DNA of 64,000 bases from Nitrospina sp. (GCA_018653085.1 JABIAY010000053.1:64561-128560), one strand, 5' to 3'. Positions 42,312 through 49,243 are shown, counted from the stretch's first letter. Translations and numbers: made by a program. Notes: generated by a model not told the origin, from the sequence alone.

Positions 42312-44294
42312 ATGGAAAATATGGCAAAACCACAAGATGAGATCCCAGCCCAGGAGCCCTCCCAAATCGGGATGGATGTAAGGGGAGAGGTCCTGGACCG
42401 GTCCATTGAACGCTCGCGGGAGTTTTTGCTCTCCTGTCAGGATGAAGAAGGCTATTGGGTGGACGAATTGGAGGCCAATGTCACCATTTCGGCGGAATTG
42501 ATTTTCTTCATGCATTTCACCGACCGGCTGGACCCGGTCAAACAGGACCAGATCGTAAAATATTTACTGCATCTTCAAAGGGAAGACGGCAGTTGGTCTC
42601 TTTTTTATGGCGGGTTGTGCGATATCAACTCGACGGTTGAGGCTTATATGGCCTTGAAAATGGCAGGCCTGCCTGCGGATCAGAAAGAGATGGTGCTCGC
42701 ACGCCAGGCAATTTTCGCCAATGGAGGGATAAAAAAAACCCGCGTTTTCACAAAAATGTTTCTGGCCATGTTTGGTCAGGTTTCCTGGGACGACTGCCCG
42801 GCGGTGCCTGTGGAAATTATTTTGCTGCCGAACGGGTTCCCTTTTAATATCTATGAGATTTCGAGTTGGTCGCGGGGTACGGTGGTTCCCCTTTCTATTG
42901 TGCGTTCCTTCGAGCCGGTGCACGAATTTCCAGAAGGATGGGATGTTCAGGAATTGTTCACCGAAGAGGATAGGGATCTGGATTTTAAACCCGATGGCCT
43001 GCCTTTCACCAGTTGGAGGAACACGTTTATATACCTTGATCGCTTTATCAAGACGATTGGCAAGTTTCCCTGGAAACCTCTGCGCAAAAAAGCACTGCGC
43101 AAAGTGGAGCAATGGACTCTGGAACATCAGGAAGACGAGGGCGACTTCGGCGGCATTCAACCGGCAATGTTCAATGCTCTTTTAGCCTTCCATCTTTTGG
43201 GTTATCCCAAGGACCATCCCGCATGTGTGAAAGGAATGGAAGCGATAGACCGTTTCCTGTTGGAAAAAGACGGACGGCTCTGGATGCAGGCCTGCGTTTC
43301 CCCCTTATGGGACACGGCAATCGCCGCCAACGCTTTGTTGGACTCGGGGTTACCTTCGGACCACCCAGCTCTTGTAAAAGCCGGAGAGTGGATCATCGCT
43401 AAGCAGGTGGTCAAGCGCGGAGACTGGCAGGTGAAGAATCCGACAGCGGAGCCGGGAGGCTGGGCATTTGAGTTTTATAACGAGTTGTACCCGGATACCG
43501 ATGATACAGCAGAGATACTGATTTTCCTCGACCGCATTGAGATTGCCGACAACCGTTGGAAATTAAGCGAATGCCAGCGGGCGATGAACTGGCTGTTAAG
43601 CATGCAAAGTAAAAGCGGAGGTTGGGGAGCCTTTGATGTAGATAACGATAAGGAAGTTCTCAACGAGATTCCTTTCGCCGACCATAAGGCGTTGCTGGAT
43701 CCGCCAACGGTGGATGTGACCGGTCGCATTCTATGGATGTTGTCGAAATGGGGATTTAAAAAATCCCACCCTCAGGTTCAACGGGCCATCCAGTTTATTA
43801 AGGAACGCCAGGAAATTGATGGATGCTGGTTTGGTCGATGGGGAGTGAATTATATCTATGGCACGTTCCTGGTCTTGAATGGTTTGTCTGCTATCGGGGA
43901 GGATATGAATGCGCCGTTCAGCCGCAAAGCAGTCCGCTGGCTGGAAAGTCACCAGAATGAAGACGGGGGCTGGGGTGAAACCTGCCAAAGCTATCAGGAA
44001 CCCAGCTTGCGTGGTCGTGGTAAAAGCACCGCCTCACAAACTGCCTGGGCATTGCTGGGACTCATCGCCGCCGGTGAGGCAAAAAATCCTGTTGTCGAGC
44101 ACGGTGTGCGCTATTTGATCGAAACACAAAATGATTCGGGAGATTTTTCAGGAAGCTGGTGGGAAGATGAATTTACCGGAACCGGTTTTCCCATCCATTT
44201 TTTCATCAAATACCATATGTACCAGCACTTCTTCCCACTGATGGCCCTATCCCGCTACCGGCGCCAGCGTGACGCTGGACTCAACGAGCAATAG
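42312..44294 (+). CDS. shc: Squalene-hopene cyclase
   Basis: 660 aa. Catalytic DxDDTA (PDTDDTAEIL) and repeated QW motifs (QxxDGGWG, QNEDGGWGE). The last 9 codons and the stop are repeat sequence. Confidence 0.93.
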   Translation: MENMAKPQDEIPAQEPSQIGMDVRGEVLDRSIERSREFLLSCQDEEGYWVDELEANVTISAELIFFMHFTDRLDPVKQDQIVKYLLHLQREDGSWSLFYGGLCDINSTVEAYMALKMAGLPADQKEMVLARQAIFANGGIKKTRVFTKMFLAMFGQVSWDDCPAVPVEIILLPNGFPFNIYEISSWSRGTVVPLSIVRSFEPVHEFPEGWDVQELFTEEDRDLDFKPDGLPFTSWRNTFIYLDRFIKTIGKFPWKPLRKKALRKVEQWTLEHQEDEGDFGGIQPAMFNALLAFHLLGYPKDHPACVKGMEAIDRFLLEKDGRLWMQACVSPLWDTAIAANALLDSGLPSDHPALVKAGEWIIAKQVVKRGDWQVKNPTAEPGGWAFEFYNELYPDTDDTAEILIFLDRIEIADNRWKLSECQRAMNWLLSMQSKSGGWGAFDVDNDKEVLNEIPFADHKALLDPPTVDVTGRILWMLSKWGFKKSHPQVQRAIQFIKERQEIDGCWFGRWGVNYIYGTFLVLNGLSAIGEDMNAPFSRKAVRWLESHQNEDGGWGETCQSYQEPSLRGRGKSTASQTAWALLGLIAAGEAKNPVVEHGVRYLIETQNDSGDFSGSWWEDEFTGTGFPIHFFIKYHMYQHFFPLMALSRYRRQRDAGLNEQ

Positions 44295-44375
44295 CTTCTC
44301 TGGCTAGCAAACGATTACTCGGCTTAAAATGGGCTTGCTAAATTCCCCCCTGATAAGGGGGGCTAGGGGGGTTGC
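44258..44375 (+). repeat. Repeat locus R6 (A unit overlapping the shc 3' end, plus a family-2 hairpin)
   Basis: CCAGCGTGACGCTGG (44264-44278) ACTCAACGAGCAATAGCTTCTCTGGCTAGCAAACGATTACTCGGCTTAAAA, then ATTCCCCCCTGATAAGGGGGGCTAGGGGGGTTGC (44342-44375). Confidence 0.9.
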
Positions 44376-44409
44376 TTGTATGTGAACTCATCGAAGCATC
44401 TCGCCGAGC

Positions 44410-44982
44410 CTAATGCTGTCGAAGCATTTCTACTGCGAATTTGGTTCGGGTCAAATGTTCTGTGGCGGATGCGATCACTTCGCCGCTCATGACATCGGTC
44501 ATGGTGAGGTGAACATCAATATTAGTCCCAAGATCGGTGATACGACCTGTGATGATGGCCTGGGAGTTGAGTGCCTTGCCCATTAACCGGATCTCTTCCC
44601 TGTTGTATAGGTAAGAGGGTTTCAGGTTTAACTGCTCCAATACTGCGTTGACTTCTCCTTTTTGTGCTATCCGAAACGTCTTGTCCTGGAAAAAAAACTT
44701 TTTCGTAATCGCTTCCACGACTCTGGACGCAAAATACTCCCCAAGAATGGGAGCCCTGTTTTCTTCATCGACCAGGTCCATGACTGTGACCTTATTGATT
44801 TCATATTCTTCAACGTCTGCAGTCAGTTTTTGCACTAGCTCGGTAGATTTATCTTTGTAGTAACTGGAGTCCGTCTGAGTTCGGAACAATTTGCTCCAGA
44901 AGTTTGAAGGACCCAACTTCACTTCACAGCCGGAAACAAAGAGGGAAATCATGAGCAAATAAAGGAGTTTTCGCGTGTCCAT
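44410..44982 (-). CDS. Hypothetical lipoprotein
   Basis: 190 aa. Lipobox LFVSGC after a basic/hydrophobic N-terminus. The body pattern loosely recalls small periplasmic lipoproteins of the FlgO/CsgG/LpoB kind, but no motif is diagnostic. A perfect sigma-54 promoter lies upstream. Confidence 0.6.
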   Translation of the reverse strand: MDTRKLLYLLMISLFVSGCEVKLGPSNFWSKLFRTQTDSSYYKDKSTELVQKLTADVEEYEINKVTVMDLVDEENRAPILGEYFASRVVEAITKKFFFQDKTFRIAQKGEVNAVLEQLNLKPSYLYNREEIRLMGKALNSQAIITGRITDLGTNIDVHLTMTDVMSGEVIASATEHLTRTKFAVEMLRQH

Positions 44983-45046
44983 AGTTTATAAACCTTTGAT
45001 TTATTATCGTATTGTCGTCAGAAACCTGATCTCGCTTAAAGAGTAA

Positions 45047-45062
45047 TGCAAACTGGGTGCCA
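45047..45062 (-). promoter_or_regulatory. Sigma-54 promoter (consensus match) for the lipoprotein gene 44410-44982
   Basis: The minus strand reads TGGCACCCAGTTTGCA, i.e. TGGCAC-N5-TTGCA, which is exactly the -24/-12 consensus. The -12 element lies about 65 nt upstream of the ATG at 44982. Confidence 0.65.
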
Positions 45063-45218
45063 GACGCTAAAAATTTTGGCAGAGCCTGAGTCGGGTGGAA
45101 TAAACCCTTTAAATTAAACGGGTTATGTGTTGGAGGGGGAAGGCGGTGGGCTTCCTGACTGAGTCAATAAAAACGCCAACCTGGGGATATTTTGCCGATA
45201 TCCCCCCATTTTTTGACA

Positions 45219-48337: not shown

Positions 48338-48676
48338 TTAAATGGCCTCTTCACCTCGTTCGCCTGTGCGAATCCGAATAACATCTGCAAGGTCGGTCAC
48401 GAATATTTTTCCGTCACCTATTCGGCCTGTCTGTGCGGCTTTCATGATCGTATCGATCACCTCTTCCGCTTGGGCATCGGCGATGACAATTTCCAGTTTA
48501 ACTTTTGGGAGAAAATCAACGACATACTCGGCACCGCGGTAGAGCTCTGTATGGCCCTTTTGGCGACCAAATCCCTTGACCTCGGTGACAGTGATTCCTT
48601 GTACCCCAATCTCATTCAACTTGTCTTTGACTTCATCCAACTTGAATGGTTTAACGATTGCATCAACTTTCTTCAT
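48338..48676 (-). CDS. glnK: P-II protein GlnK (paired with amt)
   Basis: 112 aa with Tyr51 in the T-loop. Differs from the glnB product at 17 of 112 positions by my alignment. Confidence 0.93.
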
Positions 48677-48770
48677 AGTATTTTCCCTTCTTAAGCGAGA
48701 ATGACAAGATTTGACTCGTTGATATGTGATTGGAGAAGAGTTGAATTACCCTCCAACAACCTTATCTATT

Positions 48771-48785
48771 TCAACAATTGTGCCA
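48771..48785 (-). promoter_or_regulatory. Candidate sigma-54 promoter upstream of glnK-amt
   Basis: The minus strand reads TGGCACAATTGTTGA, about 95 nt upstream of the glnK ATG. Same TGGCAY-N5-TTGA form as at glnB and nirB. Confidence 0.45.
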
Positions 48786-48904
48786 ACTTGAAGCCTTTCG
48801 GCTGGCATTCAGATTATCTGTTTATTTTCAAATACTTGGAGGAGGGATGCTAAATTTTGTCCAACTGAAAAACCTTGTTGAGCAAGATTTCTGCCTAAAT
48901 TTTG

Positions 48905-48921
48905 AGCACCAAAACGGTGGG
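48905..48921. promoter_or_regulatory. NtrC-type enhancer-like palindrome upstream of the glnK promoter
   Basis: GCACCAAAACGGTGG (48906-48920) resembles the GCACC-N5-GGTGC core of enterobacterial NtrC sites. It lies about 125 nt upstream of the -24 element. Confidence 0.3.
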
Positions 48922-48944
48922 TATGCTTTGCCACGAAGCACCGG

Positions 48945-49243
48945 CCCACTAGGCGTGGGGCCAGCGTGCCGTCGCTTTATTTGGCGAGCAGAGAGTTTGT
49001 CTCGGCGCAATCAAGCTCTTGCCCAGTTGCCCCTGCGGCTAGCAGCCACTAGGCGCCGGCGAGCCGCCGGTGGCTACTGCAATGGCGTTTACTAATTAGC
49101 AACAGTTTATCTCGGCACGATTAAATCCTCGCCCACTGAGTCCAGCGTGACGCTGGTGCCCAGTCGCAACCCCTGCCAAGGGGCACTAGGCGTGGGATTA
49201 GCGGAAGCGGGGTTATTGCTCACTGAGTCCAGCGTCACGCTGG
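48945..49243. repeat. Repeat locus R9 (four head/hairpin units in tandem and inverted order)
   Basis: CCCACTAGGCGTGGGGCCAGCGTG..GGCGAGCA..CTCGGCGC (48945-), CCACTAGGCG CCGGCG agc CGCCGG..TGCAATGGC..CTCGGCAC (49046-), CCCACTGAGT CCAGCGTGACGCTGG (49142-49156), and an inverted unit CACTAGGCGTGGG..TTATTGCTCACTGAGT CCAGCGTCACGCTGG (49229-49243) that overlaps the nirC 3' end. Confidence 0.9.

Follow-up and report, generated by a model that had tools for sequence, protein, structure and literature searches.

A family of short repeats lies at the 3′ ends of genes in the Nitrospina sp. DNA analyzed here (one 64-kb stretch, hereafter the window), where it replaces last codons and supplies stop codons. 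The Nitrospina-clade genome is probably densely seeded with this non-autonomous, REP/BIME-like mosaic repeat, which caps genes at their 3′ ends. The supply of stops by repeats at gene ends is already known REP/BIME-like biology, GTAG-REP termini that give TAG stops having been reported, together with intragenic REPs, in 2013 (PMC3733652). Unexpected was the finding that an identical 20-mer of one hairpin module, designated H-a, occurs in bacteria of distant phyla as well as in phage contigs.

Sixteen family units were found in the 64-kb window using nhmmer. The repeat unit is a mosaic of about 100 nt comprising a short GC-rich hairpin, a sequence-conserved core, and a second hairpin, and inverted dimers and nested hairpins occur besides this arrangement. 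The non-palindromic core of about 60 nt follows the pattern A-N4-GCAATRNC..TGGCGAGCAA..TCTCGGCT..TTGC, while the hairpins are interchangeable modules, including H-a (CCAGCGTGACGCTGG followed by ACYCA), H-b (CCCACTAGGCGTGGG), and others. The H-a hairpin with ACYCA was present in six copies in the window and in none in shuffled sequences. Often, a CAC-TAR-SS tag stands 5′ of the unit; it corresponds to the 5′ half of H-b. The stems of H-b vary as CCAC/GTGG, CTAC/GTAG, CTGC/GCAG, and CCGC/GCGG, and the stem of H-a as CCAGCA/TGCTGG and GCAGCG/CGCTGC with a conserved loop and tail, and these compensatory changes keep up the hairpin structure. Single-sequence folds of whole units disagreed between copies, and for the core no secondary structure, RNA or DNA, was supported: RNAalifold returned no consensus structure, and the covariation of hand-drawn core helices (GCAATAAC/GTTATTGC and TTGCT/AGCAA) was not above that of shuffles. 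At the gathering threshold, Rfam matched only tRNAs and riboswitches, and nothing on the repeats, in the window and 19 loci from other phyla. Canonical intrinsic terminators were ruled out, since the terminator scan did not call H-a or H-b, which are GC-rich but have no U-tract, and terminator-like sites were as frequent as in shuffles.

All eight gene ends that the earlier note had placed in or at a repeat were found within or against one. NCBIfam confirmed hopene cyclase, NirC/FNT, GlnE, LpxI, Lon, and citramalate synthase among these genes. The shc gene (42312-44294, plus strand) ends in CGC CAG CGT GAC GCT GGA CTC AAC GAG CAA TAG and the FNT/nirC gene (49213-50040, minus strand) in GAC CAG CGT GAC GCT GGA CTC AGT GAG CAA TAA, and both tails are, at the coordinates originally given, one frame of the H-a hairpin plus GAGCAATAR. 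Since both genes happen to use the one frame of H-a that reads through the tag and loop stops, both carry the tail QRDAGL(N/S)EQ followed by a stop. The plus-strand unit at 44261-44372 overlaps the shc 3′ end, with H-a (44264-44283) encoding QRDAGL, the core GAGCAATAG providing NEQ and the stop at 44292-44294, and hairpin 2 (CCCCCCTGATAAGGGGGG) at 44346-44363. On the minus strand, a partial unit consisting of the head only (49212-49243) encodes QRDAGL through H-a (49224-49243) and SEQ plus the FNT/nirC stop (49213-49215) through GAGCAATAA. Two plus-strand units (48944-49047 and 49056-49157, together 48944-49157) lie downstream of the FNT gene, with a minus-strand H-a at 49137-49156.

The convergent spacer between glnE and cimA is filled by a minus-strand unit (22429-22537) with H-a at 22515-22534. 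Its hairpin 2 (22433-22448) and GTGTAA lie within the 3′ end of glnE, which terminates within the hairpin CCGGCCAAGCGGCCGG plus GTG TAA (stop at 22459-22461), and the cimA stop (22538-22540) is either provided by its CTAGGCG tag or directly next to it. Like that of cimA, the stops of four further genes directly adjoin repeat heads. The lpxI stop TAG (14823-14825) is followed at once by the H-b head hairpin (CCACTAGGCGTGG) of the plus-strand unit 14826-14927, and the lon stop TAG (53579-53581) by the H-b-like hairpin CCCACTAGCGTGGG of a diverged minus-strand unit (53491-53578). After the mutase stop TAA (61241-61243) come the tag CACTAACC and H-a (61218-61237) of the minus-strand unit 61135-61238, and directly after the TAG of ORF 45510-46367 begins a plus-strand unit without hairpin 1 (46369-46478). 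The stop codons come from three sources, the pre-hairpin CAC-TAR tag, the hairpin loops (TGA or TAG), and GCAATAR in the core.

The other units are a plus-strand copy in a divergent spacer away from gene ends (26658-26763), a minus-strand copy antisense to the two plus-strand genes that it separates (29193-29280), an inverted pair in a divergent spacer (45224-45434, with 45224-45326 on the plus and 45333-45434 on the minus strand), plus-strand copies between the nirB start and the lon stop (53095-53195) and between the tig start and a tRNA gene (59490-59570), and a unit with no assigned strand at 63377-63461, which contains a compensated H-a variant (CCAGCATGATGCTGG, 63380-63399). ORF 45510-46367, with inverted repeats on either side, was considered as a transposase and rejected, as neither Pfam nor NCBIfam matched it and its signal peptide is lipoprotein-like.

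Orthologous sites indicated that the tails are insertions. SHC orthologues with 83-96% identity have a common body up to ...ALSRYR and then many different tails, which across the Nitrospinaceae include QRDAGLNEQ, HAR, ATRRGANEQ, and the native RRALDVDSQ, each before a stop; the repeat-free relative with RRALDVDSQ has a 31-nt spacer. In the window this gene end is occupied by H-a, in locus L004 by H-b, and in L005 by another hairpin; L003 has no repeat there, and in L002 (96% amino acid identity) the hairpin is H-b′, whose loop TAG is the stop. Similarly, the FNT tails are DQRDAGLSEQ, EPTRRGANVQ, and the native EEELAAAEK; the window has H-a at this site, L002 has H-b, and L257 is repeat-free. 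The cimA gene was cut short by the element, ending in LNR versus the native LNQNRKK or longer (L178-L181), and glnE was lengthened by the hairpin relative to L181. In lpxI, the C-terminal length is conserved among orthologues, the stop being TGA in repeat-free and TAG or TAA in repeat-bearing relatives, and the lon orthologue in L005 ends with identical residues. In L002, an H-b hairpin of 13 nt lies at the junction of ORF 45510-46367.

When the window was set against a relative 93-95% identical to it, each of the six spacers examined lost homology precisely where the repeat began or ended; no whole-unit filled/empty site was found in this comparison, and the repeat-bearing spacers all differed by replacement. 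The shc and FNT/nirC tails are repeat-derived and not ancestral, as repeat-free relatives keep native ends, and no distant orthologue with QRDAGLNEQ but without the repeat was seen among the orthologues compared. The alignments show that repeat variants turn over rapidly at one site and that native tails have been replaced. The swap of variants at one site could be gene conversion instead of new insertion.

The simulation in the window supported the proposed enrichment of repeat heads at stop codons, as 7 of 16 heads fell between −40 and +4 nt relative to a co-oriented stop, against a mean of 1.8 under the null (P = 0.001). Five heads abutted a stop within 1-4 nt versus 0.13 under the null, a number reached in 0 of 20,000 trials (P < 5e-5). 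Independent units at other Nitrospinota loci agreed: in 7 of 20 units with non-H-a heads, an ORF of 80 or more codons terminated within the head or 0-6 nt upstream. This enrichment may reflect targeting or selection for ORF-capping elements, being compatible with both alike. An ORF entering a repeat necessarily ends at the first stop of the repeat, so that some coincidence of tails is automatic, and mechanical ORF calling might have extended ORFs into repeats with a coincidentally shared tail. Nevertheless, such a chance or annotation artefact is hardly credible, because the genes belong to well-defined families whose alignment extends to the last conserved residues, many independent assemblies show identical tails (127 contigs encode the FNT protein with its tail), and the enrichment is far above the null.

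The exact H-a 20-mer was found at more than 116 genome loci, versus about 4 calculated by chance, in Nitrospinota, Verrucomicrobiota, Clostridia, Planctomycetota, and an alphaproteobacterium. It was also present in 52 viral contigs, versus one for an equally long H-b control, and in CRISPR spacers. Its copies are set within unrelated flanking repeats and, in other phyla, are preceded only by a purine at −1 instead of the tag. At or over stop codons, 52 copies were in sense and 6 in antisense orientation, and where the ORF was untouched, with its stop 0-12 nt upstream, the ratio was 20 to 1. At five different tRNA genes, in five Clostridia genomes, H-a either directly adjoins the 3′ CCA or has it in common with the tRNA. 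In-frame insertions were found in phage terminase, SNF2 helicase, and CpaB genes, and one clean filled/empty pair in a phage terminase revealed an 18-nt H-a insertion with no target-site duplication. A search of cultured-phage GenBank records with the 20-mer gave partial chance matches only, and among 1,529 ORFs clustered across loci, only generic SDR proteins, response regulators, ABC ATPases, and TPR proteins recurred, with no H-a-linked gene. We tentatively consider it possible that the H-a module (R-CCAGCGTGACGCTGGACYCA-AT) is an undescribed micro-element of about 18-20 nt that moves between phyla and phages and is positioned strand-specifically at gene 3′ boundaries. If so, its exact placement would imply a mechanism that targets the 3′ ends of genes or RNAs, or else a function conserved at the RNA level, for example as a processing or protection signal.

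The outer CTAG/CTAA had earlier been tentatively linked to an IS5-group target duplication. In a rival explanation along this line, MITEs derived from this group would insert into YTAR sites and duplicate them, the stops (C)TAG and (C)TAA being merely convenient targets. CTAG does flank unit 14826-14927 on both sides and lies 3′ of hairpin 2 in several units, and YTAR is enriched beside heads (16 of 43 within −8 to +3, versus 5.5% in controls). However, YTAR sits in the longer conserved CCAC-TAR-SS, the 5′ half of H-b, and therefore belongs to the repeat itself; the tetranucleotide is better read as part of the tag, which would correspond to the GTAG tag of REPs, a known donor of TAG stops (PMC3733652). 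Most units have no matching flanks, unit 14826-14927 being the only one that does, and a matching duplication was shown at no unit and was absent from the clean H-a insertion in the phage terminase. H-a in other lineages lies next to TGA just as frequently as next to TAA or TAG, and neither an IS5-like parent nor long terminal inverted repeats were found. The proposed link was not supported, and an IS5-type origin is improbable.

In the preferred REP/BIME-like explanation, units collect at the 3′ ends of genes, their heads facing the stop, and often land in or replace the last few codons. The ORF then ends at the first in-frame stop offered: the TAR of the tag, the TGA in the H-a loop or the TAG in the H-b loop, or, in the only frame open through tag and loop, the TAR of GCAATAR. 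The modules may move as single-stranded hairpins, handled in trans by an HUH/RAYT-like enzyme that does not duplicate the target, and their retention at 3′ ends may be aided by a role of the hairpin in the 3′ UTR that is harmless or useful. A cognate transposase was not found in about 1.3 Mb of loci searched. The sole RAYT-like gene in this DNA, at locus L024 (NF047646, 80 bits), is flanked by unrelated GTAG hairpins, and searching all loci gathered with E. coli RayT and the L024 protein as queries returned only L024 itself.

If a function as RNA is the main reason for the position of the elements at gene ends, their location would reflect selection and not insertion preference. A sense 3′-UTR hairpin could then make the mRNA more stable, set or process its 3′ terminus, or stall ribosomes at termination, and Liang, Rudd and Deutscher reportedly observed in 2015 that E. 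coli REPs within about 15 nt of the stop stall ribosomes. The sense bias of H-a at gene ends, which holds with the ORF untouched, its position on tRNA 3′ CCA ends in five Clostridia genomes, and its conserved loop and tail with compensatory stems are consistent with this putative role. REPs also lie preferentially after co-directional or convergent genes (PMC3733652). However, copies are also found in divergent promoter spacers and antisense to genes, the U-tract is absent, and in-frame intragenic copies fit a processing signal poorly. Moreover, hairpin types swap freely at orthologous sites and some relatives have none, so that no particular hairpin is required. We regard it as rather unlikely that an RNA role mainly accounts for their location.

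The Nitrospinaceae are major marine nitrite oxidizers. Their C-terminal tails such as QRDAGL(N/S)EQ, TRRGAN(E/V)Q, or ...PA are repeat-encoded and strain-variable; they are not to be taken for conserved motifs and are unsuitable for alignments and phylogenies. The REP/BIME-like system turns over fast, with different variants at one site in strains only about 5% diverged, which offers a strain-typing marker and a source of 3′-end variation. If the cross-phylum H-a is mobile or functional by itself, it would be an unusually small element common to bacteria and phages, and would provide a handle on how hairpin repeats reach their exact places at gene ends.

REPs are known to lie within 20 bp of 3′ ends, where their GTAG termini give TAG stops; intragenic REPs encode amino acids, and REP families are sometimes common to distant taxa (PMC3733652). 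Like REPs, the Nitrospina repeats are short GC-rich stem-loops in many copies in intergenic DNA, dispersed and enriched near ORF 3′ ends (16 units per 64 kb). Like REPs, which are imperfect palindromes of 20-40 nt, H-a and H-b form stem-loops whose stems are maintained by compensatory or G-T changes, with short unpaired tails, often CCA; the tag gives a TAG stop, and some copies are intragenic and translated. They occur as singles, inverted dimers, and mosaics, and the alternation of REPs with conserved linkers is that of BIMEs, although this likeness is one of architecture only, the linker sequences being unrelated to E. coli motifs. In contrast to REPs, they carry no unpaired GTAG/CGTC tag but CAC-TAR-SS before 16 of 43 heads, H-a often being untagged, and unrelated hairpins interchange on a conserved non-palindromic core of about 60 nt. 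No RAYT flanked by Nitrospina hairpins was found in about 1.3 Mb, and H-a is also present in phage contigs. Our literature search found no publication on the H-a hairpin sequence or on REPs in Nitrospina.

Terminal inverted repeats with a YTAR duplicated at both ends, as in IS5-type MITEs, were not found. The Correia elements of Neisseria are likewise abundant small repeats near gene ends, where they modify 3′ UTRs and can change ORF termini. Their terminal inverted repeats of 26 nt, their TA duplication, and their IHF site were not seen in the Nitrospina repeats. Rickettsia palindromic elements and Coxiella and enterobacterial MITEs also insert in or at ORFs (PMC5896051, PMC2759123, PMC3733652), and resemble the present family as non-autonomous palindromes tolerated in frame or rewriting C-termini. 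They measure 100-170 nt and have defined terminal inverted repeats and usually a TA-like duplication, whereas the minimal inserted module here is about 18-20 nt and enters without duplication.

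The shc gene (42312-44294, + strand) ended in ...RYRRQRDAGLNEQ and the FNT/nirC gene (49213-50040, - strand) in ...ATLQDQRDAGLSEQ, each followed by its stop codon. In both, the last nine codons were made up of the hairpin CCAGCGTGACGCTGG, here called H-a, then ACTCA, and then (A/G)(C/T)GAGCAATAR, all read in one common frame. The glnE gene ended within a different hairpin plus GTGTAA, and the stop codons of lpxI, lon, cimA, the mutase gene, and ORF 45510-46367 lay flush with a repeat. The identities of the genes were confirmed by NCBIfam, and their ends, with stops in or against repeats, were as the earlier note had described them. 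A placement simulation in the window showed that repeat heads (the hairpin 1 end of a unit) are enriched at stops in their own orientation: 7 of the 16 heads lay at -40 to +4 nt from such a stop, against a null mean of 1.8 (P = 0.001), and 5 abutted one at 1-4 nt (null 0.13, 0 of 20,000 trials). H-a followed by ACYCA was present in six copies in the window versus none in shuffles. The pattern at gene ends is genuine and statistically well supported. The G+C content of the window was 48%, a protein with the name 'MAG: Nitrospina sp.' matched its FNT protein at 100% identity, and the SHC homologues were from Nitrospinaceae/Nitrospinota. Two P-II (GlnB-like) paralogues, 17227-17565 (+) and 48338-48676 (-), shared 78% nucleotide identity, and one of them adjoins amtB and the repeat-rich FNT spacer.

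Using nhmmer with a seed of six copies picked by hand, 16 units of the family were found in the window. A unit of about 100 nt comprises hairpin 1, A-N4-GCAATRNC, TTT..TGGCGAGCAA, 6-9 nt, TCTCGGCT, AA.., TTGC-N5, and hairpin 2. The core between the hairpins was conserved in sequence, unlike the hairpins themselves, which varied among H-a, H-b (CCCACTAGGCGTGGG), CCGGCGAGCCGCCGG, CCCCCCTGATAAGGGGGG, CTCCCACGGGAG, and CCGGCCAAGCGGCCGG. Some units stood alone, others were nested, and two formed an inverted dimer (45224-45434); the spacers that hold them were convergent, tandem, or divergent. No secondary structure was supported for the core, the repeats of the window had no match in Rfam, and a terminator scan found no canonical terminator features in the hairpins. 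The called TTG start of a hexapeptide-transferase ORF (60325-61164, -) falls within the unit at 61135-61238, and translation of this ORF therefore probably begins further downstream.

Other repeats accompany these units. A second family (GTATTGCGCTTGA...GGGCAATGCAGTACTGGCCCCACGCCKAGT; 14925-14985, 46682-46747, and 53423-53488) has an H-b-type end in common with the main units and a different body. The C-rich hairpin ATTCCCCCCTGATAAGGGGGGCTAGGGGG (38756-38784, 44342-44370, 46455-46483, and 53173-53201) serves as hairpin 2 in some units and is also found alone. At 46528-46615, within a repeat-filled spacer of 520 nt, a 44-nt segment (AGCCCTCTTTGAGAAAGAGGGGGTTTTAAACCCCCTAGATCCTT) is perfectly duplicated in tandem. 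In locus L177 of another genome (3520-3600), a module of about 40 nt (TACCCCTNCGGGGCAC-TAAGGC...) sits in the H-a loop directly after TGA, and the same module is inserted beside another hairpin in L002 (3858-3898). Thus, hairpin modules appear to insert into existing hairpins.

Orthologous gene ends with and without repeats were then compared. SHC proteins of 83-96% identity were common up to ...ALSRYR and continued into many different tails. The place of H-a in the window is taken in L002 (96% amino acid identity) by the H-b variant CCCGCTAGGCGCGGG, where TAG in the loop terminates the protein (RYRHAR). In L004, H-b has TCG in its loop, and the reading frame continues to GAGCAATAA (ATRRGANEQ). 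L005 contains a further, different hairpin. L003 is repeat-free at this site, with a spacer of 31 nt and the tail seen most often, RRALDVDSQ. The FNT ends varied in the same pattern: the window carries H-a, L002 carries H-b and ends in EPTRRGANVQ, and L257 is repeat-free and ends in EEELAAAEK. In the window and in L177, the cimA product ended in LNR, with TAG of the tag as its stop. It ended in LNQNRKK in L181 and after 9-10 more residues in L178-L180, so the element truncates the protein. The glnE product ended in LLRAH in L181. A hairpin extended it to ..SGQAAGGNV in the window and to ..AGQVAGGH in L177, and the L177 stop is TAG in the loop of H-b. The lpxI product and a 190-aa protein were unchanged in length among orthologues, with a TGA stop when repeat-free and TAA or TAG flush with the element when repeat-bearing. 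Judging from these orthologous ends, the view that the repeats are insertions that rewrite C-termini is right. In comparison with a 93-95% identical relative, homology stopped precisely at the edges of the repeats in each of six spacers, and the repeat content differed every time, so turnover is fast, with reuse of the same sites.

The stop codons were supplied in three ways: by TAR in the tag, the CAC-TAR(-SS) motif before the hairpin (cimA, mutase, lpxI, lon, and ORF 45510); by the hairpin loops; and by the TAR of GCAATAR. H-a reads CCA GCG TGA in frame 0, ending the protein in '...PA', whereas frames 1, (T/A)SVTLD, and 2, QRDAG(L/P), continue to the next stop. Among ORFs of at least 80 codons in 178 distinct H-a contexts, 21 ended at the loop TGA and 14 stopped exactly 0 nt before the hairpin. 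The tail QRDAGL(N/S)EQ shared by shc and nirC is frame 2 of H-a plus a window-type core, and H-b read in that same frame gives the sister tail TRRGAN(E/V)Q.

The exact H-a 20-mer CCAGCGTSACGCTGGACYCA was present in at least 116 stretches of species-representative genomes (L006-L121), with about 4 expected by chance by calculation. About half of the matches listed were from Nitrospinota; others listed were from Verrucomicrobiota, Clostridia (Oscillospiraceae/Ruminococcaceae), Planctomycetota, an alphaproteobacterium, and a Bifidobacteriaceae MAG. The 20-mer was also carried by 52 viral contigs (L124-L175) versus 1 for the H-b control pattern; it was not found in the cultured-phage records searched, and a literature search found no paper with the H-a sequence. 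Flanks were unrelated between lineages in 157 non-redundant contexts, with biased positions at -1 (purine in 145 of 157), +1 (A), and +2 (T), and within Nitrospinota H-a bears different cores in different lineages. The compensated variants GCAGCG..CGCTGC and CCAGCA..TGCTGG kept the stem, with loop and tail constant. At gene ends, 52 copies were sense versus 6 antisense. In five Clostridia MAGs, H-a adjoined or overlapped the 3' CCA of tRNA-Val, tRNA-Gln, and three tRNA-Leu genes (L017 5876-5969, L020 1237-1331, L043 1899-2002, L054 3218-3321, and L055 1727-1830). At three Ruminococcus loci, a terminator stem of 13 bp also uses the 3' half of H-a as its 5' arm. In a Verrucomicrobiae MAG, the 20-mer was contained in two adjacent CRISPR spacers (L021 2311-2404; array repeat approximately GCTTCAATGGGGCCGCGCTCACGTGAGCGCGGAGAT). 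Hairpins of the GTCATTCTGAGGAGCGTAGCGACGAAGAATC / GTCATCCCGAGCGAAGCCGAGGGATC type lay beside H-a in several phyla (L008, L013, L033, L086, and L107; about 46610 in the window), and look like another short hairpin motif common to several phyla.

In-frame H-a copies were found inside a phage terminase, an SNF2 helicase, and a CpaB protein. The terminase was the clearest case, and its site was compared using L163 1064-2744, L258, L259, and proteins P0241-P0312. Most relatives read WDACG-EAFDEEDY-EGR, and one lineage read WDACG-QRDAGPNSPSAHTQLEEEM-EGR, plus later point substitutions. L163 versus L259 showed a clean 18-nt insertion with no target duplication. Across lineages, this site in the terminase large subunit (WDACG|...|EGR) carried different palindromic in-frame inserts, QRDAGPNSPSAHTQ, DHLRWGSSPSALEVHSLL, CGNEQLTMNNEQW, and SEQRTTNSEQW, and it looks like a hot spot where hairpins insert. 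The clean insertion also bears on the IS5-type YTAR target duplication proposed in the earlier note. YTAR did occur at -8 to +3 of 16 of 43 heads versus 5.5% of control windows, but it is part of the longer CCAC-TAR-SS, its usual context. That motif is the 5' half of H-b, so other hairpins are often nested within an H-b frame. An IS5-type mechanism is therefore not supported. The part worth follow-up is the cross-phylum, phage-borne H-a hairpin, exactly placed at gene ends.

Repeats at gene ends are already known for REPs, which are sometimes intragenic and code for amino acids, often have short CCA-like tails, and include families common to distant taxa (Di Nocera et al. 2013, PMC3733652). 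MITEs rewriting C-termini are described for Coxiella and enterobacteria (PMC5896051 and PMC2759123). The Nitrospina family behaves at gene ends as documented for REPs. However, the GTAG/CGTC tag of the published REP superfamilies is absent, with CAC-TAR in its place, the core is long, conserved, and non-palindromic, the hairpins are interchangeable, and no RAYT has been linked to the family. A single RAYT-like gene came from a Nitrospinaceae MAG (L024 4005-5045; NF047646, the REP-associated tyrosine transposase model, 80 bits, at cutoff). It also has a DnaA C-terminal-like domain. The inverted GTAGTCAAGAAGAGACTTGAC GTAG hairpins on either side of it are unrelated to the Nitrospina repeats and had no further copy in the fetched sequence outside L024. 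Given the REP-documented behavior and the lack of support for an IS5/YTAR mechanism, we classed the family as working in a REP/BIME-like manner.
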